Source of the DNA: a virus
Lineage: Duplodnaviria; Caudoviricetes
DNA length: 40,131 bases
Strand: one strand, 5' to 3'
Virus record (IMG/VR): IMGVR_UViG_3300037608_000038
Location: 1-40,131 of that record
Positions 4,737-35,792 of the stretch are shown here, in pieces (the first letter of the stretch is position 1; every line of letters begins with the position of its first letter). A model generated the notes under the pieces. That model saw nothing but the letters and a program-made list of their open reading frames with translations, did not search any database and was not told where the DNA came from. A program made the position numbers and the translations under genes.

Positions 4737-5111
4737 TTATTTAATATGCGTCCCTACCACACCTCTAGCTTCCCTGCCCATGGTCCGCTTCCGGAGCCAC
4801 ATAAGCGCTTCCTCAAGCTTAGTTATTGCCAACGCATTTTCCCGGCAGGCGAATTCAGATTTTTGGAAATGCTCAAGCCTGGTTATAACCATGGCTATAA
4901 GATCCTCGTTGCAGACACCGTTTACACCGCACTCCTTGATGGGGCCTTCCTGGAAGTGAATTTCTGCCAAAATAGCTTTTGGCCATCCTTCACCTTGCAG
5001 GGCTTCAATTACTCTAAAATTATGTGGTGCGTCATACTTCATCTGTTCTGGTTCTTCGTGATACACCTCAGTGTATTTAGTAGTAAGTAAATCATGTACT
5101 AGTTGTTTCAT
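4737..5111 (-). CDS. tad1: Tad1/Acb2-family anti-defence nucleotide-sponge protein
   Basis: H.F/Y...I.FQ.G..KE....GV...DL......RL..FQ...F..RENA.A.T..EEALMW...R...R..R.V.GT..K matches the Tad1 pattern as recalled (Clostridium Tad1); similar length (124 aa). Confidence 0.8.
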   Translation of the reverse strand: MKQLVHDLLTTKYTEVYHEEPEQMKYDAPHNFRVIEALQGEGWPKAILAEIHFQEGPIKECGVNGVCNEDLIAMVITRLEHFQKSEFACRENALAITKLEEALMWLRKRTMGREARGVVGTHIK

Positions 5112-5147
5112 TTTTTTGACTTCCTTTCGTCACGTTATTTTTGTTTG

Positions 5148-5324
5148 CTACATGGTAATTTTTTCCGAAGTCACAACTCGCAGGATTAAGTTGATAACTC
5201 CCAGGATTGCTACTTGGGTTTCGGGGTCTAGGTAGTCAATCCCAGTTTGCCCCTGTACTATAATGCCAACTACTGCGATGGTGTTCACCCATAAGGTTTT
5301 AGATAGATACCACTTTTTGCCCAT
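5148..5324 (-). CDS. Putative holin (58 aa, two TM segments)
   Basis: Read manually: MGKKWYLSKTLWVNTIAVVGIIVQ...ETQVAILGVINLILRVVT; directly after the endolysin. Confidence 0.7.
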   Translation of the reverse strand: MGKKWYLSKTLWVNTIAVVGIIVQGQTGIDYLDPETQVAILGVINLILRVVTSEKITM

Positions 5325-5325
5325 C

Positions 5326-5913
5326 TCATCTCACCCCCTCTACTATTTCGATGATTTTTGCTAATGCGCCACCGGTCACAGTGGCTACCTTTTTCACACC
5401 GTCCCAGGTCACCTCCTCGCCGTGGATAGCTGCGTATGGTCTAAGCGGTATATAGGTCGTACCGTTGTACAGGAAGGCCGGCATTTCTTTGCCTTGAACT
5501 ATGGCCTTAATTTCTTCCACGTCTATCCGCTCCTTTATGTAGGCTATTGGGTCTACCCATACCCCATTGACTCGGACCCCAAAATGCAGATGCGCGCCGG
5601 TACTTCTCCCAGTACTCCCCATCAGAGCCACTACGCTGGCTTCTGTGACAAGGTCACTAGGCTGGTAATATGTACGGGCACAATGGGCATAAAAAGAGAA
5701 CACGCGTCCGCTGTGTTCGATAAGGATGCTATTTCCCCATACGGGGGAGTATTTAGTTTCCCTGATTATACCGTAGAGCATTGGCCGGATATACCAACTG
5801 TCGTTTGTAGGGCTGATGTCGACTCCTTTATGCTCTTTTCGGAACCCGGTGATAGGATCATTCCGCCAGCCGAACGGAGATGTAATACGGAACCTTTCAA
5901 TGGGGAATTGCAT
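5326..5913 (-). CDS. Endolysin: M23 peptidase plus C-terminal copper-amine-oxidase-like (stalk) cell-surface domain
   Basis: ITSPFGWR..P, HKGVD, YAH, STGAHLHF; C-terminal PAFLYNGTTYIPLR...VTWDG; GGAGGT RBS before MQFPIER. Confidence 0.9.
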   Translation of the reverse strand: MQFPIERFRITSPFGWRNDPITGFRKEHKGVDISPTNDSWYIRPMLYGIIRETKYSPVWGNSILIEHSGRVFSFYAHCARTYYQPSDLVTEASVVALMGSTGRSTGAHLHFGVRVNGVWVDPIAYIKERIDVEEIKAIVQGKEMPAFLYNGTTYIPLRPYAAIHGEEVTWDGVKKVATVTGGALAKIIEIVEGVR

Positions 5914-5946
5914 AGAATTACCTCCCAAACGTCTTATGCTTTGTCC

Positions 5947-5986
5947 GGCAGAAGACCCCTTCCTCTAAGGGAGGGGGTGAATTGCC
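5947..5986 (+). mobile_element. IS200/IS605 left-end-like hairpin
   Basis: ggcagaagaccccttcctctaagggagggggtgaattgcc; similar to 37800-37869 and 27787-27815. Confidence 0.65.
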
Positions 5987-6010
5987 TTCACCTTCTTTTT
6001 GTAGTATAAT
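5982..6010 (+). promoter_or_regulatory. SigA promoter firing into the solitary CRISPR repeat
   Basis: TTGCCT-17 nt-TATAAT. Confidence 0.7.
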
Positions 6011-6021
6011 ACCTATAAGCA

Positions 6022-6052
6022 TTCGCCCCCGTGCGGGGGCGTGGATTGAAAT
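6022..6052 (+). CRISPR. Solitary type I-C CRISPR repeat unit (candidate Racr)
   Basis: TTCGCCCCCGTGCGGGGGCGTGGATTGAAAT: 7-bp stem plus the GTGGATTGAAAT 3' handle typical of I-C repeats; no second repeat nearby and no cas genes. Confidence 0.85.
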
Positions 6053-6071
6053 AAATGGATATTGCATAATA

Positions 6072-6299
6072 TCACGCCTTTACCAGTTCTTCTCTTAGTT
6101 CATCTATCCGGTGGTGCGCTTGTTTAGCTGAGGACTCCACCGCCACCATGCGCTCGATCAGTCTGTTATGCTTGTCTACCTTTTTCTCTAATTCTTGTAT
6201 CCGATAGTTAGTGAGTTTGTTTGATGTGAGTATCCCCCCGAGCGTACCAATTGCCGAACCTGTTAATGACAAAAGCCCTACAATTACCAATGAATCCAA
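6072..6299 (-). CDS. Putative holin-like protein (N-terminal TM plus coiled coil)
   Basis: TM then YRIQELEKKVDKHN...ESSAKQAHHRIDEL, a pattern common in Bacillota lysis cassettes. Confidence 0.7.
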   Translation of the reverse strand: MDSLVIVGLLSLTGSAIGTLGGILTSNKLTNYRIQELEKKVDKHNRLIERMVAVESSAKQAHHRIDELREELVKA

Positions 6300-6311
6300 C
6301 TCTACCGCCTC

Positions 6312-7010
6312 CTAGAATCCACTTTCTCCGGATATAACAACTACTTCCCTGATAGCCTCCAGCCAATCAATATCACGCAATCGCTGATCCCTAAAATCCT
6401 CGATTATTGCTCTCATAGGAGCTTTAGCCCGGTTATTGACGATAGTAAAATTTCTGTCGCCGTCGCCTTCGGTGTAAATCTTGTGCTTGATGCCAAACAA
6501 CCCCCGCACGAAGTCCATAAATATCTCATCGGTTTTCCGACCTTCCACGCAATCCTCGAAGTAGTTGGCAAAGTCCTCGTAGGACTGTTTCCAGGCATAG
6601 CCGCCGGAACTTTGATTACCAAAGTTCATAGACTGTCCCATTAGGGAGCAGGCTTTTTGCCAGAGCAATGAACCGTCAGCCCCGAACTTTGTCAAGTGTA
6701 TGTAATGGCCTATTTCATGGGGCAACGAAGATGTTTTGCCATCCATAACAACACGCTTATACTCCTCTTCCTGGCAGCCGGCGGCTATCCACTCTTCAAG
6801 GGTAATCATACGCGCAAAAATCAGAGTGATGTCCGGCCTGATGTGTTCCCTATTGGTGTTTGTGAGGTCCTCCCATCCCGGATATTTCATGTCAAGGTAA
6901 ATACCCAGTTCCGGGAACATTCGCCAGGAAAAGCCGTTGCGTACCAACAGAGGGTAGTAGTCTCTTTTGTACACGTCATAATCTGCGTCTTTTTCAAAAT
7001 GAACTTTCAA
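6312..7010 (-). CDS. HExxH zincin-like metallopeptidase with C-terminal stalk-like domain
   Basis: LPHEIGHYIH motif with downstream YEDFANYF; C-terminal FTIVNNRAKAPMRAIIE...IDW; AAAGGAG RBS before TTG at 7010. Confidence 0.65.
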   Translation of the reverse strand: MKVHFEKDADYDVYKRDYYPLLVRNGFSWRMFPELGIYLDMKYPGWEDLTNTNREHIRPDITLIFARMITLEEWIAAGCQEEEYKRVVMDGKTSSLPHEIGHYIHLTKFGADGSLLWQKACSLMGQSMNFGNQSSGGYAWKQSYEDFANYFEDCVEGRKTDEIFMDFVRGLFGIKHKIYTEGDGDRNFTIVNNRAKAPMRAIIEDFRDQRLRDIDWLEAIREVVVISGESGF

Positions 7011-7056
7011 TGTTCCAGCTCCTTTCAAATAAAAATACCGCTCTCTGCGGTAAATG

Positions 7057-7103: not shown

Positions 7104-7565
7104 GTGAAAAAATTAACTATTCCTCTGGCGATATTAATTTCCCTTATTGCCGCTAATGTGATGCGTTTTGACACTGAAGCAACAAAAGCCGTTCCAGACA
7201 GCGCTATTTATTATAAATGGGTACGCGATAGGTGGACCGGTGACCTCTGGACGCTTCGATATAGTCCGAGCGGCCTTAGTGAAGAGGTTTCCTTGCCTAA
7301 CCCTAAAATTACGCCATTGGCTCCACAGAGCGGGTGGAGGGATTGGCAACCATCTACTAATACCGATACAAATAGAATACAGACTTCTTTTAAAAAGCCT
7401 TCATGGGAAACTAAAGCGGAAGACGAGGCCAACGCGGCGGCAATTAGGCGGAAACAGTGGTACACAGATCTTTGGTATGTGCTGACATTTGGTTCATCCG
7501 TATGGACTCTCCTGGCTGTCAGGGGTTGCCTTAAAGAGAGGAAGAAAAAGGAGGGATATCTGTGA
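7104..7565 (+). CDS. Two-TM membrane protein (153 aa) carrying a copy of the ejection-protein N-terminal motif; candidate superinfection-exclusion protein
   Basis: GTG at 7104 with GAGGTG RBS; hydrophobic N-terminus, C-terminal TM and basic tail; the loop contains TNTDTNRIQTSFKKPSWET. Confidence 0.75.
   Translation: MKKLTIPLAILISLIAANVMRFDTEATKAVPDSAIYYKWVRDRWTGDLWTLRYSPSGLSEEVSLPNPKITPLAPQSGWRDWQPSTNTDTNRIQTSFKKPSWETKAEDEANAAAIRRKQWYTDLWYVLTFGSSVWTLLAVRGCLKERKKKEGYL
7359..7414 (+). repeat. 56-bp inverted repeat, copy 1 (partner 11180-11235)
   Basis: 54/56 identity with the reverse complement of 11180-11235. Confidence 0.95.
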
Positions 7566-7863: not shown

Positions 7864-10800
7864 TTATTTTTTCTCTGCCCAAATCAAGGCTCTCTTGCGG
7901 TCCAGTTGTAGATATCTCTGATGTTTTTCTTCCGGCGTCATTTTAGTATCGGTGTTAAGCTTCTTAATTTGGGCGTTAATTCTGTCGATTTCCCGCCGCT
8001 TAAGGGTTTCTCTATACATAGCCTGCGGATTCGGGCTTCGTTGGTATGCCTTGGTTTGTTTTTCGCTCAGCGGACGGCGGTTGCTTTCGTAGTATTCTCT
8101 GGTTTCGGGAAAGCCGCCCGGCCCAAACAAAGCGCCCTTGACAGTGTTGGCCATGCCGGTATCTACGGGATATTTCAATTGCGTTCCCGCTGTATTATAT
8201 ACCCCGCCTTGGGACAATGCCCTTATGCCTCTGATCGTTTTTTGCGCCTGTGCTCCACCAAATGGCGGCAACGCTTTATATAAGGGGTCGCTCAATCCTT
8301 TTCCTATCAAGAGTCCAGTCCCAAACCTTGTAGGGTCATTTCTGCCAAATAGTTCTTTGCGGGTATAAGGCATTTTAGAATCTTTGCCAAAACCGTGCTC
8401 GGGGTACGCTGCCGCCACAAACTGCCCCGCAGGTGTGTTGGATATTACTTCACCCGCAAGCCTCCCGGCTCTTTGGGTTGGCGAAATGTCTTCTTCTGAT
8501 AAAGCATCGTAAACAGCATCGATAGGATCGAATACTATCCCGGAACCCCTAACTTGTTCCAACCCCCTATTAAGCAAAAAATTAGCTGCGTAAAGCATCG
8601 CCAAGCCTGTAAAGTCCCGCGCTTTTAAAAAGTCCCTCTGTACATGCCAAAGGTTGGCAACTTCAACGGTAAACGGGGCTACAAGCTGCACAAGCTTAGC
8701 CTGCTGGGCGATAGAAACTTCCCCTATCCCCCGACCTGCCACAAGGTTCCTGGTTATATCATCAGCATATTTTACGGGGTTAGCAATCTTTTCAGCCAGG
8801 GCTTTTTGATAGGTGGAATTCCAGATATACTCCGTCCCAACCTTGTCCATGACTTCAAGCATCCAGGCGGCAAACTTCTTAGGCTGGTCAATCAGCCTTT
8901 GGTCAAACTGGCGGAATGGATGCGAGAATCGCTCTTTTAGGAAGCCTGATTGCGCCATTTCCGCCGAAGGCTTGAATATTGACCTCACATACCGCGTAAA
9001 TCCGGGAATGGAATACTGCTTATTATAGGCTATTCCTTGGGGTACGTTGGCGATCTGTGAGAGGGAGGACGCGGCATTACCCATTATTACATTAGCTTTA
9101 ACTCTGCTGTTCAGCCAATTTAAGCCCTTAAATGCCATCCGTCCGCCTGGGATAATCTTTTGGATTGCTCTGTCAAAAGGGTTGGTTTTCCCGGCCAGTT
9201 GCCCGGAATAGTCCCGAAGATACTCTATGAAGGTGTTTAAATTTTTTGTTCCTTCTGTAGCTGTTGCCAACTCATCAGCTAACTTAGTAAACTTACTGAT
9301 GTGCGGATCGATATGTTTTGCATAAGAGGCTGCGGGAATATAGTCGAGAAAGCCGCCGACCGCATCGTTTTTAAACGGTCCTAGGCCGCGCTTTTGAGCA
9401 AAGGAGAGGAATTTAGACTTCGGTTGCGTAAAATCAGATATCCCGGCTAAACTAGGGTTGATGCCCGCAGGAGTTTCAAAGAGGTTTTTCACTCCCTCGA
9501 AAGTATCGGACAGTTCCCGGAAGTGCCGGTAATAGTCCTGACGTTCAGGGATCCTCTTACCTCTCCAAAGATCCTCGTTGTTCTTTAACTCTACCGCTTT
9601 ATTCAGCCTATCTTTAAGATGGTCTATTTGTTCCGTTAGCTGTTGGGCTTTAGCCCCGCGTCCTGTTGTGGCTTTTTGTGCTATTTCGAGTTCTTTCTGC
9701 TTACTTTGAATATCCTGTCTGATATTCTTAATATTATCGTCCAGGGCTGCCAGATCCCTTTCTACATATGGATATATTTTTGCACGGATTTCATTTACTT
9801 CATCCAGAAGAGTCTTATATGCTTTTCTAAACCATGTGTCAGCTTCTTTAACTTTGGCTAGTTCATCAGTCCTAAGGGATAACAGTTCTTGCTCCGTTAT
9901 GGTTTTCTCTCCGTATTTCTGGACCATTTTAGACAATCTACTGCCTTTTTGTATACCTAACCTATCCACTACTTCCGTTTTGAGTTTGTTAGCCCATAGC
10001 TCCTGCGTTTCTACGTTTGCCTTTTTTGAAGCGTCAAAAGGATCAAGTATTTCCTTTTTCACCTTAGGAAAATGTTCTCCAAATACAGCCTCGAAGTTGC
10101 GGTATACGGAGTTGGTATATGCCCGCCACCCGCTTAGGTCTTTTAGTTTTGTGGGGTTAAGAGGTTCATCAAGTTTTTGGGCAGTTTGTTTTATTGGTTC
10201 TTCCCAACTAGGTACTTTCGGAGGTTTGCCTTTCATAGCACGTATTTCGTCTACTATTTGTGACCTTGTTTTCGTTTCGCCTATGAAAGCATCTTTATCA
10301 TATACTTTAGGCTGTTCGATGGTTTGTTTAAACTCTAGGGGAGTAACCTGTGCCTGAGCCTGTTTCTTGGGCAGTATGGGAGGTTTTGCAGGGTCGTAAG
10401 GTTTGCCGATCATCTCGAAGTTTTGTCCTTCATTCAATAGCCTTCCACTTTGAACAGCTTCACTCTGGCTATCCCGTACTACTTTGCGAATTGCGGCCTT
10501 TTGGGTATCGTTCATATTGTCCCAGTCTACGCCTATTTCTTTAGCTACTCCTTTAACCAACATTTCAGGATCTGCAGAACCTACACGTTTAAATACTTTG
10601 TCAAATGCAGGCTTAATTTTGTTGGCCAACGCCGGCAATCCTACCTCTGCTAACGGCCCGAAAATAGCCGCACCGCCTCCATATAAGGCCGCCTCTGTGC
10701 CTGCCTGCTTGAGAACGTCTGTTCCCCTCTTGCCTTCGGCAAAGGCCTCTACGCCCCCTTTAACGGCTCCTAAAGGAGCGTCGCCGACGAGTCCGGTTAC

Positions 10801-11265
10801 AGCAGATTTAAGAACGGGGCTGGCGATTTTAGAGATAAAGGGTAGTTTGCTGGCTGCTTGGTACGCCTTACCGAATGGCAGAATGCTCCCAGCCAGCTGT
10901 CCCGCTGTGGCAGTAGATAGTATCCCCTGGCTGTACTTGGGCATTTCCTGGGCTAATTTTTCTTGCCCTGCGCCCAAGGTTAATCCACTCATCATATTTG
11001 ATAGAAACACGTCGCCGCGGTTATACTCCCCCCTGTTCAAGGCCTCCCCCGCCTGACGGGTTACTCTGTCCCTGGGCAGTTCGTAGGGTTCAGGCGGAGC
11101 CATTTGAGTATTAAAAATACCGCCTTGTTGTGGCGGCTGGGGGGGAGACAATACAGGCTGCTGATATTGCGGGGAGGGATTAGTTTCCCATGAAGGCTTT
11201 TTAACGGAAGTCTGTATTCTATTTGTATCGGTATTTGTTTCCCATGAAGGCCTTTTTAAAGCCAT
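7864..11265 (-). CDS. Large internal virion / DNA-ejection protein (1133 aa)
   Basis: Last large gene of a podoviral tail module; low-complexity N-terminus with two K(R/K)PSWET motifs, Gly/Ala-rich membrane-type segments and a helical C-terminus. Confidence 0.7.
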   Translation of the reverse strand: MALKRPSWETNTDTNRIQTSVKKPSWETNPSPQYQQPVLSPPQPPQQGGIFNTQMAPPEPYELPRDRVTRQAGEALNRGEYNRGDVFLSNMMSGLTLGAGQEKLAQEMPKYSQGILSTATAGQLAGSILPFGKAYQAASKLPFISKIASPVLKSAVTGLVGDAPLGAVKGGVEAFAEGKRGTDVLKQAGTEAALYGGGAAIFGPLAEVGLPALANKIKPAFDKVFKRVGSADPEMLVKGVAKEIGVDWDNMNDTQKAAIRKVVRDSQSEAVQSGRLLNEGQNFEMIGKPYDPAKPPILPKKQAQAQVTPLEFKQTIEQPKVYDKDAFIGETKTRSQIVDEIRAMKGKPPKVPSWEEPIKQTAQKLDEPLNPTKLKDLSGWRAYTNSVYRNFEAVFGEHFPKVKKEILDPFDASKKANVETQELWANKLKTEVVDRLGIQKGSRLSKMVQKYGEKTITEQELLSLRTDELAKVKEADTWFRKAYKTLLDEVNEIRAKIYPYVERDLAALDDNIKNIRQDIQSKQKELEIAQKATTGRGAKAQQLTEQIDHLKDRLNKAVELKNNEDLWRGKRIPERQDYYRHFRELSDTFEGVKNLFETPAGINPSLAGISDFTQPKSKFLSFAQKRGLGPFKNDAVGGFLDYIPAASYAKHIDPHISKFTKLADELATATEGTKNLNTFIEYLRDYSGQLAGKTNPFDRAIQKIIPGGRMAFKGLNWLNSRVKANVIMGNAASSLSQIANVPQGIAYNKQYSIPGFTRYVRSIFKPSAEMAQSGFLKERFSHPFRQFDQRLIDQPKKFAAWMLEVMDKVGTEYIWNSTYQKALAEKIANPVKYADDITRNLVAGRGIGEVSIAQQAKLVQLVAPFTVEVANLWHVQRDFLKARDFTGLAMLYAANFLLNRGLEQVRGSGIVFDPIDAVYDALSEEDISPTQRAGRLAGEVISNTPAGQFVAAAYPEHGFGKDSKMPYTRKELFGRNDPTRFGTGLLIGKGLSDPLYKALPPFGGAQAQKTIRGIRALSQGGVYNTAGTQLKYPVDTGMANTVKGALFGPGGFPETREYYESNRRPLSEKQTKAYQRSPNPQAMYRETLKRREIDRINAQIKKLNTDTKMTPEEKHQRYLQLDRKRALIWAEKK
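11180..11235 (-). repeat. 56-bp inverted repeat, copy 2 (partner 7359-7414)
   Basis: Encodes NTDTNRIQTSVKKPSWET in the ejection protein. Confidence 0.95.
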
Positions 11266-19139: not shown

Positions 19140-19922
19140 TTAAGTTACAGTAGCGCTAAACGGTGTAGCTTCAGCGCCGGTTGCAGAACCCATTACACGC
19201 ACATACCATGTATCGGTTGCAATATCGATTAACTCTACGCTATCCCCTTTTATTCCGCCTGTAGTGGTTCCGTTAAAAGTAATAGTGTCAGAGTCGGCGG
19301 CGGTTTCCCATCCTGATACAGTTGCATCAGCATCATTACAGATTATTGCTGCACCTGTCATGATATCGTTCCCTGTTACTTTTATGGTAGTGGAGTTAGA
19401 TGTTACAGTTGTGCCGATAATCAGATGGAATTTTGCCCCGCTTCCTGTGGCGGCAGGAAGTGTTATGGCTGCACCGGCTGCTTGGTTTATCGTAACAACT
19501 TTATTATCATGCGATGCTTCGGTTAAGGATAGGTTCGCGGTAGTGTTTACGACTCTGGAGGACACATCACACGCCCTATTTATTTCTGCAGTGGTTGACG
19601 TAACACCGTTTAATATGTTTATTTCCGCGGTAGTTGATGTAACGCCAGTCAGTTTATTAATTTCTGTAGCTGTAGACGTTACGCCAGTCAGTTTATTAAG
19701 CTCTGCGGTAGTTGACGTTAAACCAGCCAGTTTGTTGATTTCCGCGGTTGTTGCTGTGGCTCCAGCTAGTTTATTAAGCTCTGCGGTAGTTGCTGTTACG
19801 CTGGTCAGTTTATTTAGCTCTGCGGCTGTAGACGTTACAACAGTCCCGTTAAGTTTCAGATCCTGAACATCCATCCGCAACGTTTTCGCCCATGGGAAGA
19901 AGTAACTAAATAGTTTAATCAT
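19140..19922 (-). CDS. Putative head fibre / decoration protein with 7 x 13-aa repeats
   Basis: (V/A/L)T(S/A)TxxE(L/I)NxLxG tandem repeats; C-terminal ITLPAATGSG beta domain. Confidence 0.65.
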   Translation of the reverse strand: MIKLFSYFFPWAKTLRMDVQDLKLNGTVVTSTAAELNKLTSVTATTAELNKLAGATATTAEINKLAGLTSTTAELNKLTGVTSTATEINKLTGVTSTTAEINILNGVTSTTAEINRACDVSSRVVNTTANLSLTEASHDNKVVTINQAAGAAITLPAATGSGAKFHLIIGTTVTSNSTTIKVTGNDIMTGAAIICNDADATVSGWETAADSDTITFNGTTTGGIKGDSVELIDIATDTWYVRVMGSATGAEATPFSATVT

Positions 19923-19966
19923 ATACTAACCCCCTTTCAAAAAAAGTGGGGAGGGTTACCCTCCCC

Positions 19967-20461
19967 TTAGGATCCGGCTGTAATATAAACCGCAACGGTG
20001 TCGGCAGCGTCAATATCATCTGCCACAGCAAAGCCAAGAGGCTTATGAGTGGAAGCAGTACCGGCGGCCATCCTATCTACCACACCGTCCAAAGTAGCAT
20101 GGAGAATTACCGCATCTCCTTTGACGATATCATCCCCCGCGTCAGTAGCTACAGCAGAGTGATAACCACGCACTTGGATCCATCCATAATAGGACGCAGT
20201 AATGGCGCCTATGCCGACTCCTGCGGCAAAGTTTTGTTTGGAATCTGATATATCGGAAGTTACCTGCCCTCCATAGACGTCGACATATGACAGCGCTGTC
20301 CCGTTGGCTACGGTTGTGTCAGAGGCGGTCTGAACATACTTAAAGACACGCAGAACATTAGTGGCATCAATTACATGCCGCAGCATACCAACTTCATCTT
20401 TTGCGGCAGAATCGTTGGCGGTCAGTTCTGTGTTAAAAAGGACCCCATATAAGTTACCCAT
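19967..20461 (-). CDS. Putative capsid cement / decoration protein
   Basis: Directly after MCP; FKYVQ, YYGWIQVRG and GFAVA motifs. Confidence 0.6.
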   Translation of the reverse strand: MGNLYGVLFNTELTANDSAAKDEVGMLRHVIDATNVLRVFKYVQTASDTTVANGTALSYVDVYGGQVTSDISDSKQNFAAGVGIGAITASYYGWIQVRGYHSAVATDAGDDIVKGDAVILHATLDGVVDRMAAGTASTHKPLGFAVADDIDAADTVAVYITAGS

Positions 20462-20486
20462 TATCTTCAGCTCCTTTCTTTATATT

Positions 20487-21431
20487 TTAGGTCGTAATAC
20501 TAACAATGCGACCTTGGTACCGGCAGTTAGAGCAAGCTAGCTGACCCTTCCAGATAAATTGTCCTACGGCTACATCCTGGTTAAGAGGCTCTTTCCAGCC
20601 GGTCCATTTGGGACTTTCATACCCCTTGAGGGGATGCAGCTTGAGATAGGTTTGGTTCAGGAAAAACATCTGGCCGGTCGGAGTTTGGGCATCGACTATA
20701 ATCTTTGCGCTGTTAAATTTGATGTGCTCAAAGCCATAGTCAATACTGGACTTATTGGAATCCGAACGGATGGTAGGAGTAGCAAGCTCCCAGAGATCGT
20801 CCCATACATCTTGAGTGGTGATAATCAGTTGCGGCTTTTCTTCCCCGTCAGTCAGATCGCCATACATGGACTGCATTGCAGGCCAGCTGATGTAATCGCC
20901 TAATGAGGTATACTTTGCCTTATTCCAGGTGTAAGTGCCGCGGGCAAGCCCTCCATATGTGGCGATGTTGGTGCCATCATCAACAGCAGATTTTAACCCT
21001 GTCATTTCTTTGTTGCCGGTTCCGGTTCCGTCTGCAAATATACCGGAGGTAAGCAGATAAGACATCGATTTCCTGCCATTGTTCAGCTTATGGTTAAGCA
21101 GGTTCACAATGGCCTCTTTACCTTGGTTTTTATCTTTATCGTCCCCGGTAATGACAATAGAAACATAACTATCCACCCATTCAAATTCCAGGTGAGTGGC
21201 AGTCTCAACATTGTTGGTCAGGAAGGTGTCGGACCCCCTATACCAGCCACGGTTGGAGTTAAGCGCATACTCAACGGGGATCTGGAGCTTGGTACCGGCG
21301 TACCCGGTCTCTTGCTTGCTCTTAAATTCTTTTAAGGTGGGCGTAGCGTTGAAAATGTTGTCTATGACCTTTTTTTGTACTGCTTCATTAGTCAACGCAT
21401 TTAAGGTGTCAACGAATGACATGATATACAC
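20487..21431 (-). CDS. Major capsid protein
   Basis: IDNIFNATP, GIFADGTG..KEMTGL...V, P.LIITT, FFLN..YL.L; 314 aa; follows the scaffold. Confidence 0.85.
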   Translation of the reverse strand: MYIMSFVDTLNALTNEAVQKKVIDNIFNATPTLKEFKSKQETGYAGTKLQIPVEYALNSNRGWYRGSDTFLTNNVETATHLEFEWVDSYVSIVITGDDKDKNQGKEAIVNLLNHKLNNGRKSMSYLLTSGIFADGTGTGNKEMTGLKSAVDDGTNIATYGGLARGTYTWNKAKYTSLGDYISWPAMQSMYGDLTDGEEKPQLIITTQDVWDDLWELATPTIRSDSNKSSIDYGFEHIKFNSAKIIVDAQTPTGQMFFLNQTYLKLHPLKGYESPKWTGWKEPLNQDVAVGQFIWKGQLACSNCRYQGRIVSITT

Positions 21432-21476
21432 TTCCTTTCATGTAAAATGAAAACGCCCCCCTTTTTGGGTGAGCGT

Positions 21477-22193
21477 TTATTTTTTAAATACTTCTTCAGC
21501 CGCCGCATTCAGGGCATCCTTCAAACTGTTAAACTTGGGGATCTGGGCGGCTGTCTGTGCTGGTCCCATAACCTTGCCTTTATGCTTCATCTTGAGGTCG
21601 TTCATTACTTTGGACTCCACCCACTTAGCAAACTTATCTTTCAAGATTCCTCGGGTGGCCAGGCTATAGGCGTCATCTAGGGATATAACCTTGCCATTAA
21701 TAGCATACTGCTCCTGGAGATCCTTGAGTGATTCAATATCATCCTGGGTAGGTTCGGCGCCAAAATCAGTTTTCCATAGCTTTTTAACCTGGCCTTCTTC
21801 CCGTTCCATTAGGAGCGCATCAACTCGCGGATCATACTGGTATTGCCCCGGCTGTTGTTGATATTGCTGTTGTTGTTGCTGTTGTTGATATCCTTGCTGG
21901 CCCAAGCCTTCCTCGTAGCTGTTTAGGGTATGACGGACCAAGTACGGTAGGGTTACGTTGTACCTTTTAGCCATATTCTCGAAATCAACAAGGTTAATTC
22001 CTGCTTTTTCCAAGGTTCTGCGTTCCCGGGCTATCCTTTTAGTGACCATCTCATTAACCTGGTCTTGAGTGAATGTAACCGGCTGTGTATCCTGCGGCTG
22101 CAGCTGGCCGTCAACTGCAGTTTCATCCGGCTGTTGTAGGTCGCCGTCACTCGCCTGGTCATCCAGGGGTTGGGTTAAGATATCGTCTTCCAT
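21477..22193 (-). CDS. Scaffolding protein
   Basis: Acidic N-terminus, TFTQDQVNEMVTKRIARE scaffold motif, between portal and MCP. Confidence 0.75.
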   Translation of the reverse strand: MEDDILTQPLDDQASDGDLQQPDETAVDGQLQPQDTQPVTFTQDQVNEMVTKRIARERRTLEKAGINLVDFENMAKRYNVTLPYLVRHTLNSYEEGLGQQGYQQQQQQQQYQQQPGQYQYDPRVDALLMEREEGQVKKLWKTDFGAEPTQDDIESLKDLQEQYAINGKVISLDDAYSLATRGILKDKFAKWVESKVMNDLKMKHKGKVMGPAQTAAQIPKFNSLKDALNAAAEEVFKK

Positions 22194-22282
22194 TTAATAT
22201 AACCTCCCGTTTTAGGGCCGTCGCCCATTTTATCCATGCAGAGTTTTATGCCGTCAGCACGTTTTAGGCATAAAAAAAGGCC

Positions 22283-24118
22283 CTACTGGACCTGCATATT
22301 ACCACCCATTTGTTGAGCCATCTGGGCCTGTTTCATGGCGTTTTGTTCCATCCTGGCTTTTATTTCCTGATAATTCTTAATTCCATAGCGCCGCGCTATT
22401 TCTTCCTGATCGATAACTCCGCTTCGCAATAGGAATTCGGAATCTTGGCGTTCCTGATTCCTGCTCACTGATGCGGCAGCGCCTACCTCCAGGATTATAT
22501 CCAGTTGGACAGACTCGGCCGGAGCCATAACCGGCTGCCCTGTTTCGTCCACCTCTCCGGTGTCCTGCAGATACATCTGCTGCTCTGGGTTATATTGGGA
22601 GTTAGGATAAAATTCCTGATTGCTAAACTCTATAAAGTCATATCTACGAGAGCCTGTTACTACGTCCTGACCCATGGGGTCCATGATTCCTGTGCCGGGC
22701 TCCGGTTGTTGTGCTTTAACCGGGAAATCGCCTGTTATTCTGATCTGCCGGGTGTCGGTATAATATTGTTTCATCCGGCTTATGAATTTCTCGCCAACCT
22801 GCTTGATGGCCACGTCTACGTTCCGGGCTTTTTTACGTATCCTGGCTAGCGCAAATTCCTGGAGTTTGCCAAGAGCTACTCCGGATTGCCCGGAAGATGC
22901 CGGACGTCCCTGTAAGACCTCGCGGATCCCTGAAATAATTTCCAAGTCAGATTTGCAGGTATCCAGCCATTGAAATATTGATTGCGGCCAGGGCGGGGGA
23001 GCATTTACGGTAAAGTCTCCGCCTTTGTTCTTTTTAACCAGGGCTGCTTCCAGATTCTCTAAGGTGTCCTCTTTGATGTTGCACTCATCGTCATAAACTA
23101 TAGTGGTATGGCAGGTGTGGCGAATATAATCATTGAGCCGCGATACTATTTTGTTGATATCGTTGTTAATCTCTATCAGGTATTCCACGTCGCCCTGGGG
23201 AAAGAATGAGTCTGACTGCAAGTAGTTAGGGACCATGACATAGGGGAATTCTCCATCTTCAAAGGGATTATGACAGTCATCCGGGTTAAGCCAAATATCC
23301 CCGGCAATTACTACTTTCTTCCCGTTTGGATATTTCAGGGCTCCTTCCTCACGGGTAACATTCCCCAACTCATCCCGCTCCTCTTTTTCATACACGGAAT
23401 CGTCCTTCATCCAGCATTCCAGCATCTTGGCCCGGTAGTGCACCGCTTCACTAGTCACGTCTGCCGAGAAGTATTCCCTGGCGGTTTCCGTTGATATTTT
23501 GTCCTGGTTGTTTACGGAAATACTTTCGTCTCCCTTGACGTATTTCCCCAGCTTAGGAAATATCTTGCGTATCATCCACAGAGGAGCATCTGTCTCCTGA
23601 ATCATATACCGGCAGGTTTTATGCGAGGTTGCATCCGGATCCGGCCATAGGTGCAGGGGATGGACCACATCAACGACAATTTCGCCATGGGGATAGTTAA
23701 TCATGGGGTCAAAGTAGATTTTCAGCCAGCCCAAACCTGATATAAGGTGGTCCCTTTCGGCTATTTCCAGTTTGGAATTCATCTCTGTAACTTCCCATAT
23801 CCAATCTAGGACCTGTTTGCCTTTTTCTGCCAGCCCGACATCATCACGGGTACGGGGCCAGCAGTCTAATGCGGGTTTGCCGTCAGTCAGCAGAGCTAGC
23901 GCATCCTCTACGGAGGCGAAGATATAGTTCCGTCGGGAGTTAGCTTTGGTGCGGGTCTTTTTCTTGTCCTCATAGGACTTTTTATAGGCCTCATAGCACT
24001 TTTCTATAATGGCTTTGCGGTCTGCGTACGCGGATTTGGAGTTGCTGTACCAGTTTCTAACCAAGTTGACCATGGCTATTTGCTCCTGGGTCTGCTGAAG
24101 GTCATCCAATAGCTTCAC
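22283..24118 (-). CDS. Portal protein (P22-like)
   Basis: 611 aa after TerL; GLGWLK, P.H.WPDP.A, FPYV, ISGI....QG, SG.AL motifs. Confidence 0.85.
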   Translation of the reverse strand: MKLLDDLQQTQEQIAMVNLVRNWYSNSKSAYADRKAIIEKCYEAYKKSYEDKKKTRTKANSRRNYIFASVEDALALLTDGKPALDCWPRTRDDVGLAEKGKQVLDWIWEVTEMNSKLEIAERDHLISGLGWLKIYFDPMINYPHGEIVVDVVHPLHLWPDPDATSHKTCRYMIQETDAPLWMIRKIFPKLGKYVKGDESISVNNQDKISTETAREYFSADVTSEAVHYRAKMLECWMKDDSVYEKEERDELGNVTREEGALKYPNGKKVVIAGDIWLNPDDCHNPFEDGEFPYVMVPNYLQSDSFFPQGDVEYLIEINNDINKIVSRLNDYIRHTCHTTIVYDDECNIKEDTLENLEAALVKKNKGGDFTVNAPPPWPQSIFQWLDTCKSDLEIISGIREVLQGRPASSGQSGVALGKLQEFALARIRKKARNVDVAIKQVGEKFISRMKQYYTDTRQIRITGDFPVKAQQPEPGTGIMDPMGQDVVTGSRRYDFIEFSNQEFYPNSQYNPEQQMYLQDTGEVDETGQPVMAPAESVQLDIILEVGAAASVSRNQERQDSEFLLRSGVIDQEEIARRYGIKNYQEIKARMEQNAMKQAQMAQQMGGNMQVQ

Positions 24119-24136
24119 CTCCCTAAAAGCAAGGGC

Positions 24137-25699
24137 TTAATTTATCCTCACTTTGTGTTTCTCTTTGCTCCCGCCAATCTGGCGGGCTATCCAGTAGTAT
24201 ACCGTACTGTGCGCGAAATGGTCCGGGCCGGAATGCTCCCAGGTATAAATCCCTTTTTCCTCATCGGACATCAGATACATTGACTCCCAGTGGTCTACAT
24301 ATGATTCATTCTTTCTGATTCCGGACCCGCCCACCAACATCGGCTCGTTATGCGGCATATAAAAGTTGATTTTCCCAGCTTGCATATCCTTGATTACCAT
24401 ATCGATGCAGGCCGTCCGTTTAGCTAATACCACCTGCTCAGCGTAATCCACTTCGTAATGGTCCAGGCTCTTAGGTTTTCTAGCGCTCTCCTGGGTATCG
24501 TAATAACAGAGCTTTACTTTGCCCGGGTAATTTTTGCGGAACTCTGTCGCCTTGGTCGTTTCCGGCAACGCGTCTATCACCACTTGCCGAGGCTGGTAGA
24601 GGTTCATCAGAGCTTCCACGTCTGCCCAGCTGCAGGCCAGCATCTTTGTAATCCCGGTATCGTTCCCAATGGTGACATGCAGCCTGCCTCCTACGTCTAT
24701 CCCGAAAAATACGTTGCTTAAATCAGGCTTGTCCGCTCTGATATTCCGGAGGATCATGTCTCTGTTAATCGTCACGTCTGCGCCGATATATGGCTTGCCC
24801 AAATCAAAGTTGTTGAAATATTGCGGGGTTGTTTCCATCTCGTCGTTGATGAGGTCGGCACAGGGTATCCAGGGAGCTATCATCTTGCTCATCCAATAGC
24901 CTGATACTTCCCTGCCGGGATATTTGGCCACCCATTTCCCTTGCCGGCGCATATCGTCTGTTATCTCCCGCCCACAGTGGATGCAGATATACCGTTTGCC
25001 TTCATAATCCACATTTTGGGGCCAGTCTAAATATTGCCAGCCTCCAAAGTTGCCCGTGCCGCATTCACATTTTAGGAACCAATGTTTTTGGTCAGATTTT
25101 AGCCACCACTCATCTACACCGCGTTTAGGAGCCGTAGGGTTGGAAAAAAACCATCTCCTGCCATATGTGCTATGACCTAGACGGCTTTTGTATGTCCCAA
25201 CGACCTCCAGATTGCTTCTGTCGACCTCATCATGCAGCAGGATATCCGCTGTTGTTGAGATGCCTTCTTTCTCACCGTGCGTGCCGCCAAAGTGCCAAAA
25301 TCCGTTTCCGATCTGCTTTAGGGTCATGTTGTTTTTGTCCGGCTTGTATCCGTTTTGCTCCAGCAGTGGGTCTACTTTGGCCGGGACGAATTTGCGCACA
25401 TCATTTTGTAGGGTCGGCAGTGTATAGATGATGTTGTAGCCATATCTCTCGAGGAGCCATATGCATTTTAAAATAAAGATTGTGCTGATTCCTATTTGTG
25501 CCGCCTTGCGGATTGCCATTATCAGACTAAAATCCTCCCAGATGTCCCGCTGAAACTCATGGTCAGCCAGGGTGATTAGCTGCCCTTTTTCATTTTTTTT
25601 GCTTAGCGCCCAAGAGAGTATCGCTCTTTGGGTTTTTAACGTCAAGTAGTGGAGTAGTTCCTCCTTTTGTCTTCGCGTCATGGACGTCATTTTTATCAA
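24137..25699 (-). CDS. terL: Terminase large subunit (GpA-like ATPase)
   Basis: Walker A KAAQIGIS, Walker B LLHDEVD, SNPT coupling motif, GIDVG and DHFAH nuclease motifs. Confidence 0.9.
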   Translation of the reverse strand: MIKMTSMTRRQKEELLHYLTLKTQRAILSWALSKKNEKGQLITLADHEFQRDIWEDFSLIMAIRKAAQIGISTIFILKCIWLLERYGYNIIYTLPTLQNDVRKFVPAKVDPLLEQNGYKPDKNNMTLKQIGNGFWHFGGTHGEKEGISTTADILLHDEVDRSNLEVVGTYKSRLGHSTYGRRWFFSNPTAPKRGVDEWWLKSDQKHWFLKCECGTGNFGGWQYLDWPQNVDYEGKRYICIHCGREITDDMRRQGKWVAKYPGREVSGYWMSKMIAPWIPCADLINDEMETTPQYFNNFDLGKPYIGADVTINRDMILRNIRADKPDLSNVFFGIDVGGRLHVTIGNDTGITKMLACSWADVEALMNLYQPRQVVIDALPETTKATEFRKNYPGKVKLCYYDTQESARKPKSLDHYEVDYAEQVVLAKRTACIDMVIKDMQAGKINFYMPHNEPMLVGGSGIRKNESYVDHWESMYLMSDEEKGIYTWEHSGPDHFAHSTVYYWIARQIGGSKEKHKVRIN

Positions 25700-25736
25700 C
25701 CCCGTATTTTTTGATACTTTGTCCGCGTACGGTGGA

Positions 25737-25895
25737 CTAGTCCTCTATCTCCTCGTCCCTCTTGGCTCTCATTGCCTTGTGTTTTGGCTTTGGTAGCGTT
25801 GTTACCGGCGATTCACCCCTGCCGGCCTTAAAATAAATATACGCTCCGGCAAACATCGCCAAGAGCGTACCTAGTGACCCTATCATATACTCCAT
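25737..25895 (-). CDS. Small single-TM protein (52 aa) between terS and terL
   Basis: Read manually: MEYMIGSLGTLLAMFAGAYIYFK...; GGAGGTG RBS. Confidence 0.55.
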   Translation of the reverse strand: MEYMIGSLGTLLAMFAGAYIYFKAGRGESPVTTLPKPKHKAMRAKRDEEIED

Positions 25896-26362
25896 CATCT
25901 CACCTCCATCAGGGCCTGGATCCGCTTATCCAGCTCCTCATCCGTCAGCTTGCCGACCTCCTCCGTCCTAAAGGGCCTGCCGTCTTTATTTCCAATTTCT
26001 ACCTTATCGGTAAACATGCCCAGATGCTTGCCCATCAGCTCTAGAGCTTTGATTTTATCATTCATTTTGATCTCTATGGACTCTTTACCGGCAGAGATCG
26101 CAAACGCTACTTTGGCAAGCTCTGCCAGCACTTTTTCGACGGTGACAAAATTGCGATTTGCAAATTTGTCGGTGAGCTCTTGGAGTCTTGCCTGTATCTT
26201 GTCATTTCCGGCCAATCTGCAGGCCTTCTCATCTATCGTTTTATTTGTCATATTTTCGCAACCATATGCTTTTCTGTAAGCCTCTCTCTGGGTCAGTCCA
26301 GCAAAAAGGCCTTGTGCATATTTCTCTTGTTTTGCTGTGAGTTTCTCTGCCATATTTGCCAC
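25895..26362 (-). CDS. terS: Terminase small subunit
   Basis: LTAKQEKY...AYRKAY...VLAELAKVAF...DKIKALELMGKHLGMFTDKVE. Confidence 0.9.
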   Translation of the reverse strand: MANMAEKLTAKQEKYAQGLFAGLTQREAYRKAYGCENMTNKTIDEKACRLAGNDKIQARLQELTDKFANRNFVTVEKVLAELAKVAFAISAGKESIEIKMNDKIKALELMGKHLGMFTDKVEIGNKDGRPFRTEEVGKLTDEELDKRIQALMEVR

Positions 26363-26462
26363 CTCCGGACATTATTCCCCATTTATCGTCTATTGTTCGT
26401 GTTTTATAATATTCTCCAGTGATTTTTGAGACAAATATTTTCTAAAATTCGCGTTTTGCGTG

Positions 26463-26499
26463 TTGACATCTGTTTTGATTTTTGGTATACTTAAATCAA
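26463..26499 (+). promoter_or_regulatory. Strong SigA promoter with operator inverted repeat
   Basis: TTGACA-17-TATACT with TG extension; TTGATTT-N11-AAATCAA straddles the -10. Confidence 0.8.
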
Positions 26500-26546
26500 G
26501 ATAAAGGCGCGGGAGAAAAAAGACTCCGGCCAGCAGGGGGTTTAAA

Positions 26547-26783
26547 ATGGATAAATTAGTTATAGGCAAAGATTATGGTCCCATATTTGGACTAAATGCG
26601 GGGACCGGGCAAAAAATGGTATACAACGGTGGTATAAATTGGACAGCTATTAATGGTGATTTGCAGCAGACCGATGATAGCCGCGAGGCCACTGACGAGG
26701 CAATCAATCATTTATATTTAATGCCCGACTACAAAAGCGACACAGAAATAATCGGAAATATTGGCTACAGGAGGGGTAAGTAA
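26547..26783 (+). CDS. Small hypothetical protein (78 aa), Acr candidate
   Basis: First gene after the strong promoter; AGGGGG RBS. Confidence 0.7.
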   Translation: MDKLVIGKDYGPIFGLNAGTGQKMVYNGGINWTAINGDLQQTDDSREATDEAINHLYLMPDYKSDTEIIGNIGYRRGK

Positions 26784-27349
26784 TGAAAAGATATACTAAT
26801 GGGATACCTAGTAGTTTACAGTTTGTTGAGGTCACTGGCGACGATGGTACTTTTTATGATTTGTGCCGCACGTTTGAGGTAAGCAAACATGTTGATATGC
26901 TAACAGCTGGGGGTTATGCCGCAGCGCCCATAAATACAAAAGATGTTCCGCCTTGCCAATTTCGTGATTTCTCCAATGGTTTGGGATCATATGCTGACGC
27001 TATATGGGACAGCGGTAAAGATTTTTACCACTGGGGCGGCAAACGCCCCGGCTCCGGGCGGAAACCGCTGGCAGAAAAGCGTAAGCGATACACCTTCCGG
27101 CTCACCGAGCCGGAACACAAAAAAGCCAGGGAATACATCGCCGAAATGAAGTCCCGGCATACTAAAAGAAAGGAGGAAGAAAAAATGGCTACTTTATATC
27201 ATGGGGATGAGTATTTAGGCGAAATTATCACCAACCAAAGCCTGTCAGTTGAGGACGCTTGCGAGTTACTTAATATTGACATCAACGAAATGGATGAATA
27301 TGGGAATGAATCGGTATGGGACTACGAATTATTTAGATTAGTTTACTAA
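26783..27349 (+). CDS. Multi-domain protein with GGxRxGxGRK / RHH-like DNA-binding segment; an internal RBS and ATG at 27185 gives a 54-aa acidic protein
   Basis: WGGKRPGSGRKP...YTFRLTEPEH...REYI; AAGGAGG before the in-frame ATG at 27185. Confidence 0.65.
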   Translation: MKRYTNGIPSSLQFVEVTGDDGTFYDLCRTFEVSKHVDMLTAGGYAAAPINTKDVPPCQFRDFSNGLGSYADAIWDSGKDFYHWGGKRPGSGRKPLAEKRKRYTFRLTEPEHKKAREYIAEMKSRHTKRKEEEKMATLYHGDEYLGEIITNQSLSVEDACELLNIDINEMDEYGNESVWDYELFRLVY

Positions 27350-27446
27350 AAAAGGAGGAATAAAAAATAGCCGCCACCCCGCAAAGATGACCGGCTATTT
27401 CCCCAACCGACTTGACAAAGGGCAAGCGGTAAGAAGGAGTAAGAAA

Positions 27447-27620
27447 ATGAGAACCACGTACACATCACAATACGGCAAAATTATTAAACAGTGTCCTGGA
27501 CTGCATGAGTATTGGTATCACGGGAAATTAGTAGCGCGTGGGAGCAGTATATCCGCCCCACACCCATCTTGCCCGCCAACACCGGAGGACTGGCAGTTTT
27601 GCCGCTCCCTTAGGGATTAG
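27447..27620 (+). CDS. Small hypothetical protein (57 aa)
   Basis: AAGGAG RBS before MRTTYTS; followed by a terminator at about 27628-27657. Confidence 0.6.
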   Translation: MRTTYTSQYGKIIKQCPGLHEYWYHGKLVARGSSISAPHPSCPPTPEDWQFCRSLRD

Positions 27621-27699
27621 CCCCGGAAGAGAGAGGGGTTTTGTCCTCTCTCTTTTTCTCCTCATAGGTACGATTCTTTTTTTGTTTGTTTGTTTGTTT

Positions 27700-27767
27700 G
27701 TTTTAATCCACACCCATAGGGCGACAATATCTCGCAACTCATTTCAATCCACGCCCATGCAGACGAC
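27700..27767 (-). CRISPR. Degenerate type I-C mini-array: two shortened repeats and a 15-nt spacer
   Basis: GTCGTCTGCATGGGCGTGGATTGAAAT - gagttgcgagatatt - GTCGCCCTATGGGTGTGGATTAAAAC. Confidence 0.75.
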
Positions 27768-27786
27768 AATATTTTATCAGGGCTCC

Positions 27787-27833
27787 GGCAGAAGTCCCCT
27801 CCTTCTATAGGGAGGGGCGGCGGGAGTGTTCAC
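27787..27833 (+). mobile_element. IS200/IS605 fused-end scar
   Basis: ggcaGAAGtcccctccttctatagggaggggcggcgggagtgtTCAC; the GAAG/TCAC pair fits the guide/cleavage rule; 5' part closely matches 5947. Confidence 0.65.
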
Positions 27834-27837
27834 AACT

Positions 27838-27867
27838 CAAGTATAATATACTTGTACATTATGTCAA
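27838..27867 (-). promoter_or_regulatory. Promoter towards the mini-array, with palindromic operator
   Basis: Minus-strand TTGACA-16-TATACT; palindrome caagtat-aat-atacttg at 27838-27854. Confidence 0.6.
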
Positions 27868-27882
27868 TAGGGAGGCGATGAC

Positions 27883-28359
27883 TTGCAACATCGATCTATT
27901 TCGCAACGCCTGGATAGAGCCAAAACTGCCGAGGCGAAAATATCTACCCTGGTAGATTGGTCCAAGTCATGGGAACGGGAAACTATGAGCCTTATCTATA
28001 ACCTGGAGAGAGGCATCCGGACAAAAGATCACGATCTTTTGTGTAAGGCTACAGGCCAGCTTAAGGCAGTGTCCGAAAAACACTTTAAGGCGCTGCCGGA
28101 GGTGTTGACGCGCTTTATAGGCGATAACCCCGCGCCCATCGTGGGGCCTGTACCGCTGCCTCCGGCTGAGGTTGGCAGTATGCCCGAGGGCTATATATCT
28201 GCCCGGGAATGGGCAAAAAGAAACGGCAGAGAGCCAAGGCGCGGGCAAAAAATCCTTACTGACTGGCCGAGTATTGTGCCAGCCGCGAAAAAAGTCCGCA
28301 ATCCACGCGGCGGCGTGGATATATGGGCCGTGCCGGAGGATACGCCATGGCCGTATTAA
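27883..28359 (+). CDS. Protein with C-terminal MerR/excisionase-like HTH (Aca-like candidate)
   Basis: YISAREWAKRNG...PAAKKV...WAVPEDTPWP; GGGAGG RBS. Confidence 0.65.
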   Translation: MQHRSISQRLDRAKTAEAKISTLVDWSKSWERETMSLIYNLERGIRTKDHDLLCKATGQLKAVSEKHFKALPEVLTRFIGDNPAPIVGPVPLPPAEVGSMPEGYISAREWAKRNGREPRRGQKILTDWPSIVPAAKKVRNPRGGVDIWAVPEDTPWPY

Positions 28360-28380
28360 GAGAAGTCAGGCGGAGGAGGA

Positions 28381-28408
28381 CAAGTCCCCGCCCTTAGTGG
28401 AGGAGGAT
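28381..28408 (+). mobile_element. Degenerate IS605-like end hairpin
   Basis: caagtccccgcccttagtggaggaggat resembles the other end hairpins. Confidence 0.35.
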
Positions 28409-28420
28409 ATATCGACACTG

Positions 28421-28442
28421 GAGGCTTCGGCCTCTTTTTTTT
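28421..28442 (+). terminator. Intrinsic terminator
   Basis: gaggcttcggcctc plus a run of 8 T. Confidence 0.85.
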
Positions 28443-28452
28443 CGGGCAGGGC

Positions 28453-28485
28453 ATTTCAATCCACGCCCTCGCAGGGGGGCCGGAC
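28453..28485 (-). CRISPR. Solitary type I-C-like repeat just downstream of the late promoter
   Basis: GTCCGGCCCCCCTGCGAGGGCGTGGATTGAAAT; intact 3' handle, imperfect stem. Confidence 0.7.
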
Positions 28486-28513
28486 GAAGGAGTCCTTTGC
28501 AATCTTCCACACC

Positions 28514-28551
28514 TATAGTATACAATTTTTTTGTGTGCATTTGTGTGCAAT
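28514..28551 (-). promoter_or_regulatory. Probable late promoter
   Basis: TGCACACAAA direct repeat (x2) then TATACT, immediately after the ArpU/RinA-like gene. Confidence 0.55.
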
Positions 28552-28553
28552 CT

Positions 28554-29197: not shown

Positions 29198-29198
29198 A

Positions 29199-29627: not shown

Positions 29628-29649
29628 CCTCTACGCCTCCTCTTGATAT

Positions 29650-30192: not shown

Positions 30193-30231
30193 ATCTACCT
30201 CACTCCTTCACCCGTTCTTTGAACTGTGCAC

Positions 30232-30396: not shown

Positions 30397-30428
30397 ATAA
30401 TTCCTCCATTTCTGTAATACGCAATATT

Positions 30429-32333: not shown

Positions 32334-32355
32334 CCTGCAATTTTTCTCCTGCTCA

Positions 32356-35788: not shown

Positions 35789-35792
35789 ATAT

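Follow-up and report, generated by a model that had tools for sequence, protein, structure and literature searches.

A solitary type I-C repeat next to an IS200/IS605 left end in the lysis cassette of a temperate phage: a possible crRNA mimic at a relic endolysin start

The stretch of DNA analysed here (the window, 40,131 nt) derives from a groundwater metagenome and represents the whole of a circular temperate phage, with a terminal repeat of 127 nt and genes for a serine integrase, a terminase and a capsid. Its lysis cassette is encoded on the - strand and comprises a small membrane protein, holin-like by position and corresponding to phrog_1863 (6072-6299, stop codon at 6072-6074), followed by an M23 endolysin (5326-5913; PF01551 and PF07833). 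Between these two genes, on the + strand and antisense to both, as the earlier note had described, stand the left end of an IS200/IS605 element (5938-5986), a predicted promoter and a type I-C repeat, hereafter unit A (6022-6052). Racrs often lie within 1 kb of acr genes, although this is not required of them; no acr homologue was identified near unit A, the neighbours being unnamed in Pfam, PHROG, NCBIfam and PADLOC. A protein with an Acb2/Tad1 hairpin domain, over the Pfam cut-off, is encoded about 0.9 kb from unit A (4737-5111, -) and, next to the lysis genes, is a candidate cyclic-nucleotide sponge. On the other side, a 59-nt inverted duplication links 7356-7414 (+) to 11180-11261 (-): the 1133-aa virion protein has an N-terminal KKPSWET repeat, of which a small membrane protein encoded on the + strand (7104-7565) contains a copy.

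Unit A exhibits a 7-bp stem (6024-6041) with a 4-nt loop, followed by an 11-nt handle (6042-6052); by analogy, cleavage by Cas5c is predicted at 6041/6042. Cas5d is described as reading the stem base and the 3' overhang and leaving an 11-nt tag (available text of PMC5965381), and both the stem base and the 11-nt 3' overhang are intact here. Over 6023-6051, unit A is identical (29/29 nt, 0 differences) to a 95-nt repeat-spacer-repeat contig from the source run X1; because of this identity, the 4-nt loop is regarded as a natural array form and unit A as barely decayed. The depth of the matching array is about 4, as against 109 for the phage, and it may belong to another organism than the host. 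Arrays of the putative host family agree with unit A at 93% (42.8-46.4 bits, for a SRUFinder cut-off of 41.1 whose scoring may differ from ours). The exact repeat with its 4-nt loop was absent from 401 genomes of the phylum, where one array-bearing genome matched with two mismatches. Since these arrays adjoin cas3-cas5c-cas8c-cas7c-cas4-cas1c-cas2, the repeat family is assigned to type I-C; in one instance (L429), the array shares its contig with Cas3, Cas5c, Cas8c, Cas7c, Cas4, Cas1c and Cas2, all over cut-off. The near-perfect I-C repeat announced in the earlier note is as such confirmed, and the correspondence with host arrays it called for is found in part, i.e., in the source run and at 93% in the putative family, the only identical array being perhaps that of another organism.

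For the 3' 16-mer of the repeat, 1.7e-5 occurrences are expected in the window, as against three exact ones and one with three mismatches observed. It is identical in unit A and in two further units described below, B and C1, with diverged 5' arms, as expected if the 3' part is kept. The nearest of these other units lies 21.6 kb away, at 27.7 kb, and none occurs within 100 bp; no cas gene was matched among the 29 phage ORFs scanned. Being array-like, intergenic (between the gene ending at 6072 and that starting at 5913, though crossed by a 49-codon frame) and carried by a mobile element devoid of cas genes, unit A is by its sequence a solitary repeat unit as defined for SRUFinder. The description as solitary holds locally, but the same genome harbours three further I-C units.

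As for the host, matches at the protein and DNA level indicate Desulfosporosinus and its kin, i.e., a host group rather than the real host itself, and we take the name of the putative host family to be Desulfitobacteriaceae. Cas5c was above cut-off in 17 of the 69 genomes of this family, G001 showing a partial match at a contig end only. The best match among 3,939 spacers is that of a G018 spacer to the ERF gene of the phage (37452-37484, +; 27/33 with a TTT flank), which gives a weak hint at the host group. In the source DNA run, no spacer-bearing contig matched positions 5000-7000 or 19900-39700 of the window.

Upstream of the repeat, the left end (5938-5986, +) consists of the guide tetranucleotide AAGA and a subterminal hairpin, with the target tetranucleotide (TAM) TTAT just outside (5934-5937, +). 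The hairpin (5947-5986) folds with a z-score of -3.09, none of 200 shuffles being as good. This stretch aligns with left ends preceding an intact tnpB (L206) and a tnpA (L457); a close match sits before an intact tnpB in an Aneurinibacillus plasmid and, in the putative host phylum, related left ends are found before tnpA. A left-end pattern search of genome contigs returned no match. Among 11 loci aligned, of which 9 were informative (one chance coding match and one other guide were left out), AAGA is paired with TTAT in 5/6 and with CTAT in 1/6, and AAGT with TTAA in 3/3; the end near unit A, with AAGA and TTAT, matches this covariation. The earlier note's identification of an IS605 left end upstream of the repeat is well founded in these homologies. 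After 5986, neither tnpA, tnpB nor a separate right end was found, the sole TnpB trace being a broken TnpB/Cas12f-like fragment at 32.1-32.5 kb (32088-32477); what stands beside unit A is a left-end remnant, not an intact IS605 element.

Around eight IS200/IS605 ends or single-hairpin remnants are present in the phage genome, the others lying at 89-139, 290-325, 27780-27832, 28380-28415, 33130-33156 and 37795-38121. The last of these regions comprises both IS ends and a HEARO-like remnant and overlies the start of the ERF gene. No Rfam family reached gathering level over the window, a HEARO 5' stem appearing only at IS ends other than that of unit A, namely 89-139 (E 0.005) and 37987-38117 (E 0.61). 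Directly after the hairpin near unit A comes TTCAC (5987-5991), a motif listed as a TEM by Meers et al. (bioRxiv 10.1101/2023.03.14.532601, available text), which could be the element boundary. Three of the roughly eight ends or remnants are followed by TTCAC and may be PATE-like left/right-end chimeras.

The predicted -35, TTGCCT (5982-5987, +), overlaps the outer arm of the IS hairpin, as the earlier note had proposed, and is separated by 17 nt from the predicted -10, TATAAT (6005-6010, +). The +1 would fall near 6016-6017, so that the repeat begins about 5-6 nt after it. TTGCCT-17-TATAAT scores 10/12 consensus positions; since three promoter-like sites were found in 2.2 kb for 3.6 expected, the match alone is not above chance. 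An IS-native -10 (TATAAT) occurs 18 nt past TGAAT in L206, a distance similar to that at unit A, and L480 has a separate promoter of its own, TTGACC-17-TATAAT, further on. The idea that the -10 of unit A is surely the promoter of the IS itself was weakened by this different position in L480 and by an unremarkable similarity to the 37.9-kb element, which is not better than for 2 others of 49 TATAAT windows. Unlike L326, L211 and L212, the locus has no terminator-like site on the + strand between 6052 and 7060.

The sequence following the handle, i.e., the would-be guide of unit A (6053-6086, +; guide A), is the antisense of an old lysis junction. Read on the - strand from 6080 to 6053, it contains a ribosome site, the stop codon of the upstream membrane-protein gene and then the codons MQYPF of a relic endolysin start (6053-6067, -), cut off by the repeat, the last base of which adjoins codon 5. 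MQYPF is also the N-terminus of P0012, a homologue with 51% identity to the endolysin, and of P0064, whereas homologues P0011 and P0045 begin with MQSPF and MRYPF, respectively. The present endolysin starts at 5913 with its own ribosome site and reads MQFPIE on the - strand (5896-5913), with TTC on the + strand at 5896-5898, precisely at the place taken by the repeat in the relic copy. TTC is given as the I-C PAM in the available text of PMC8406640; with a TTC frequency of 0.023 per position, its presence here amounts to a single post-hoc match (p ~0.02), based on the present paralogous copy and not on the relic. A further point against the PAM position is that codon 6 is R, K, N or E in homologues. 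The gatatt-gcat-aatatc hairpin, which the earlier note had singled out downstream of the repeat, is not borne out as an RNA element: it folds at -2.9 kcal/mol (z +0.42, 124/200 shuffles as good) and corresponds to the antisense of the stop codon and relic start. The relic junction, which that note did not recognise, opens the way to two rival readings, a scar and a guide against sibling phages.

Because the repeat adjoins the relic stub exactly where the present copy has its TTC PAM, unit A has the appearance of a host repeat acquired at what was once a protospacer, and the junction would be the product of host spacer-protospacer recombination or of Cas1 half-integration. Spacer-target recombination has been documented (Varble 2019, via the available text of PMC8616872); a literature search on repeat capture at protospacers found no paper. 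More generally, the junction hints that solitary repeats could arise by replacing the PAM of a former CRISPR target. The capture may also be the end of the matter: by covering the PAM of a lysis junction that was targeted, a host repeat would have allowed escape, the IS end being adjacent by chance and the transcript inert, with units B and C as the working mimics. The exact repeat/relic junction, the TTC at the paralogous position and the recombination precedent cited above all agree with such a silent scar, as do the dispersal of some eight IS ends throughout the genome and an arrangement displaying neither conservation nor a terminator. It fits poorly, however, with the exact 17-nt spacing, the perfect -10, a +1 about 5 nt before the repeat and a repeat essentially undecayed, and no host spacer equal to guide A was present among the 3,939 (538 of them from putative host group loci); we consider it fairly unlikely.

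Transcription from the IS end might alternatively act on lysis itself, the RNA being antisense to the upstream membrane-protein gene and the junction, with Cas5c cleavage incidental or serving as a sensor. The transcript would indeed continue unterminated, antisense through 6072-7028, and the 49-codon frame (6067-5918, -), which opens at the relic start and stops 4 nt short of the present endolysin ATG, keeps the coupling to the endolysin. Nonetheless, such a frame would be open by chance with a probability of 0.089, no conservation was seen and no precedent was found, which leaves an antisense tuner of lysis very unlikely.

The three further I-C units of the phage are clustered around 28 kb. 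Units C1 and C2 are short-stem I-C repeats, 41 nt apart, forming a degenerate pair (27700-27772, -) behind a promoter TTGACA-16-TATACT (27867-27840, -). As an IS-end hairpin (27780-27832, -) sits between this promoter and C1, the IS came second at unit C. Unit B (28453-28484, -) is a degenerate I-C repeat whose 3' 16-mer is intact. A predicted -10 (28522-28517) precedes it by about 35 nt, and a terminator-like hairpin, then an IS right-end-like hairpin, follow it; the unit lies just past the predicted late promoter, after an ArpU/RinA-like activator (28554-28940). Divergent from C1/C2 is the gene of a 158-aa protein with an HTH-like C-terminus (27883-28359, +), for which six homologues besides itself were found, one in a prophage region of Desulfosporosinus sp. 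SbF1, and whose structural look-alikes, HTH_17 and HTH_59, remained under the naming bar. The ESM Atlas gave no name for either of two accessory proteins, and no relatives of the endolysin or of the 158-aa protein were found in the viral contigs searched. The region 26547-28359 (+), opposite the late genes and between the activator and the small terminase, comprises four small unnamed ORFs, two of them HTH-like, and is a candidate anti-defence island.

The layout of unit C, i.e., gene, promoter and short-stem I-C repeat, recurs in L326 (~5840-5960, -); there, the repeat is followed by a tail of 14 nt and a terminator, and no IS end was seen. The L326-type unit is that of the prophage region in Desulfosporosinus sp. 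SbF1, a genome whose arrays carry the same handle. Judging from sequence conservation, unit C is a stronger Racr/Cracr candidate than unit A; it shows that the phage lineage apparently keeps such RNAs, which is not a demonstration that unit A is one.

The pairing of an IS end with a repeat was sought elsewhere. A pattern search for the left end with the repeat returned 0 viral contigs, and none of 19 one- or two-unit matches in 123 metagenome loci (11/64 parts scanned) had an IS end, the metagenome pattern being too loose and returning mostly arrays. No IS-end-like motif occurred within 200 nt of the 33 non-redundant solitary viral matches, by a pattern that detects 4 of the ~8 ends of the window, and the repeat was beside 0/80 relatives of the upstream gene (distant, 48-74% identity). 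Statistics of IS-end/repeat proximity within the genome were rejected, the gene caller having filled gaps and IS insertions themselves creating gaps. The earlier suggestion that a transposon-end promoter was co-opted, in the sense of selected, falls short here, the pairing being absent from the other records searched. Viral contigs in themselves commonly contain solitary I-C units: 98 loci gave 60 solitary matches, 41 of them non-redundant and some of them chance matches to the handle only. Among 22 solitary units resembling the repeat, a -10 is not enriched upstream (4 upstream and 4 antisense, with 4 and 3 further up); the 20 loci with TATAAT plus repeat were selected for TATAAT and give no evidence of enrichment. 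Two unrelated viral contigs carry solitary near-copies of the unit A repeat between genes (L001, 601-630; L002, 601-629), the latter with the same 4-nt loop. Viral solitary short-stem I-C units sharing the same repeat have different tails (L230, L275, L304; L246, L261), as if guides were exchanged among them.

If guide A were functional, Cascade might be steered towards the promoter of a host cas or toxin gene and repress it. I-C Cracrs exist in Bacillota (available text of bioRxiv 10.1101/2024.10.29.618823), and I-C loci of the host family carry CreR-like units (promoter, variant stem and I-C handle), e.g., L434 (~8860-8930, +) and L443 (~8760-8830, -), with tails matching TTC-flanked sites upstream of cas genes; used as positive controls, 2 of 4 such units match near their own promoters with TTC. 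For guide A, by contrast, no target with a TTC, TTT or CTC PAM and a seed of at least 8 was found in 20 cas loci (265,550 bp), nor any pairing of at least 9 PAM-proximal bp with a cas/CreT promoter or CreR spacer, a result that is not final as the true host is not among them. In 103 genomes, the best TTC-flanked match (20/23) lies outside any cas locus and is mismatched at positions 2 and 5; four matches at three mismatches, against one for the control, were rejected as chance. In two host-family genomes (L511 and L512, ~1500), a conserved intergenic region contains a palindrome similar to 6053-6075, TTC-flanked in one of them; it was treated as chance and may be a regulator site. Given also that the guide is already explained as phage lysis DNA, repression of a host promoter appears highly improbable.

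The guide could instead be directed at other phages. In such an in-place mini-CRISPR, the sequence from the junction at 6053 onward would direct host Cascade/Cas3 against siblings retaining an intact TTC-MQYPF, the carrier being safe with its PAM replaced by the repeat and its present endolysin start mismatched in the seed. The guide is indeed phage lysis sequence and its own copies are PAM-less or seed-mismatched: no PAM-flanked target with a seed of at least 7 exists in the phage and, because the present endolysin start (19/34 to guide A) has seed mismatches, the phage would not target itself. Viral mini-arrays moreover mostly target related viruses (available text of PMC11656645). Yet, there is neither a second repeat nor a terminator to set the 3' end, and no sibling with an intact junction was recovered, the match being at peptide level only (P0012), which makes this quite unlikely. 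A one-step scenario, in which a host I-C repeat swapped over the lysis-cassette PAM would first confer immunity there and an IS605 end then switch it on, the phage's own former protospacer guiding host Cascade against unmodified siblings, is judged unlikely; if true, it would also explain the birth of solitary repeat units.

The account we favour, tentatively and at somewhat below an even chance, is that of a solitary repeat born by recombination and driven by the IS end as a competing, Racr-like crRNA mimic. A host I-C repeat would have been captured at a former protospacer by one of the two routes above, and a second endolysin start would have re-established the lysis cassette. Transcription would then start from ~6016, with the -35 supplied by the IS end, and Cas5c would, by analogy, cut at 6041/6042 to leave the 11-nt handle with an antisense tail. 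As only about 5 nt precede the stem-loop, an aberrant filament of the RacrIF1 type on the upstream fragment is unavailable, and the decoy would be the handle-bearing fragment, which could load Cascade subunits without a target and compete with immune crRNAs for Cas5c/Cascade; according to the available text of Camara-Wilpert et al. (2023, PMC10651486), even a non-targeting crRNA lowered interference. The origin so proposed is supported by the identity of the IS left end, the guide/target covariation and the MQYPF relic. The role as crRNA mimic is plausible and draws on the array-identical I-C repeat, its intact stem base and overhang, the kept 3' 16-mer and the presence of Cas5c in 17/69 family genomes, and it gains from the three further units and from the recurrence of the unit C layout in the conserved Desulfosporosinus prophage unit. 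It is weakened by the lack of a + strand terminator, of the IS-end/repeat pairing elsewhere and of a -10 enrichment elsewhere.

Compared with known systems, unit A most resembles RacrIC1 (available text of Camara-Wilpert et al., 2023, PMC10651486), in that both are a single array-like I-C repeat, intergenic in a phage, behind a predicted promoter and without cas genes; for unit A, the subtype is present in part of the putative host group. RacrIC1, however, lies 11 nt behind acrIC5 and belongs to a bicistronic RNA, whereas unit A is antisense in a lysis cassette, with a leader of ~5 nt, no terminator, a predicted -35 of IS origin and a tail that is the stub of a relic gene. Cracr RNAs (available text of Liu et al., bioRxiv 10.1101/2024.10.29.618823) likewise combine a promoter, a pseudo-repeat and a spacer-like tail and compete for Cas proteins, and units B, C and L326 are also short-tailed; Cracrs nonetheless pair over at least 9 PAM-proximal bp with a cas/CreT promoter, for which unit A has no counterpart in the loci searched. 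Viral mini-arrays (Medvedeva et al., 2019, via the available text of PMC11656645) share with unit A a host-identical repeat followed by sequence of related-phage type, but hold a spacer between two full or partial repeats, whereas unit A has no second repeat (C1/C2 being a degenerate pair) and its "spacer" is a junction that formerly belonged to the phage itself and has stayed where it was. As in IS200/IS605 ends and PATE-like remnants (available text of Meers et al., bioRxiv 10.1101/2023.03.14.532601), 5938-5986 has a subterminal hairpin and a guide covarying with its target, yet lacks tnpA/tnpB and a separate right end, and the -35 of unit A, in the hairpin arm, is upstream of where related IS ends place their own promoter. 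By its sequence, unit A is a solitary repeat unit next to an IS605 left end and a candidate Racr; in the searches made, it qualifies neither as a Cracr nor as a mini-array. A literature search brought up no paper that ties an IS605 end to a Racr promoter, and the main texts on Racrs and Cracrs, in the parts available, contain no relevant mention of transposons or insertion sequences. Solitary repeats as RNA anti-CRISPRs are already published; the new part is the IS-derived -35 together with the repeat-at-PAM junction. What the locus adds to these systems is a readable history, its insert being bounded by the TTAT target of the IS605 end and, at the PAM position, by codon 5 of a relic endolysin; if this history is true, the origin of phage solitary repeats and of their promoters becomes directly testable, and decoy, scar and anti-sibling guide can be told apart.
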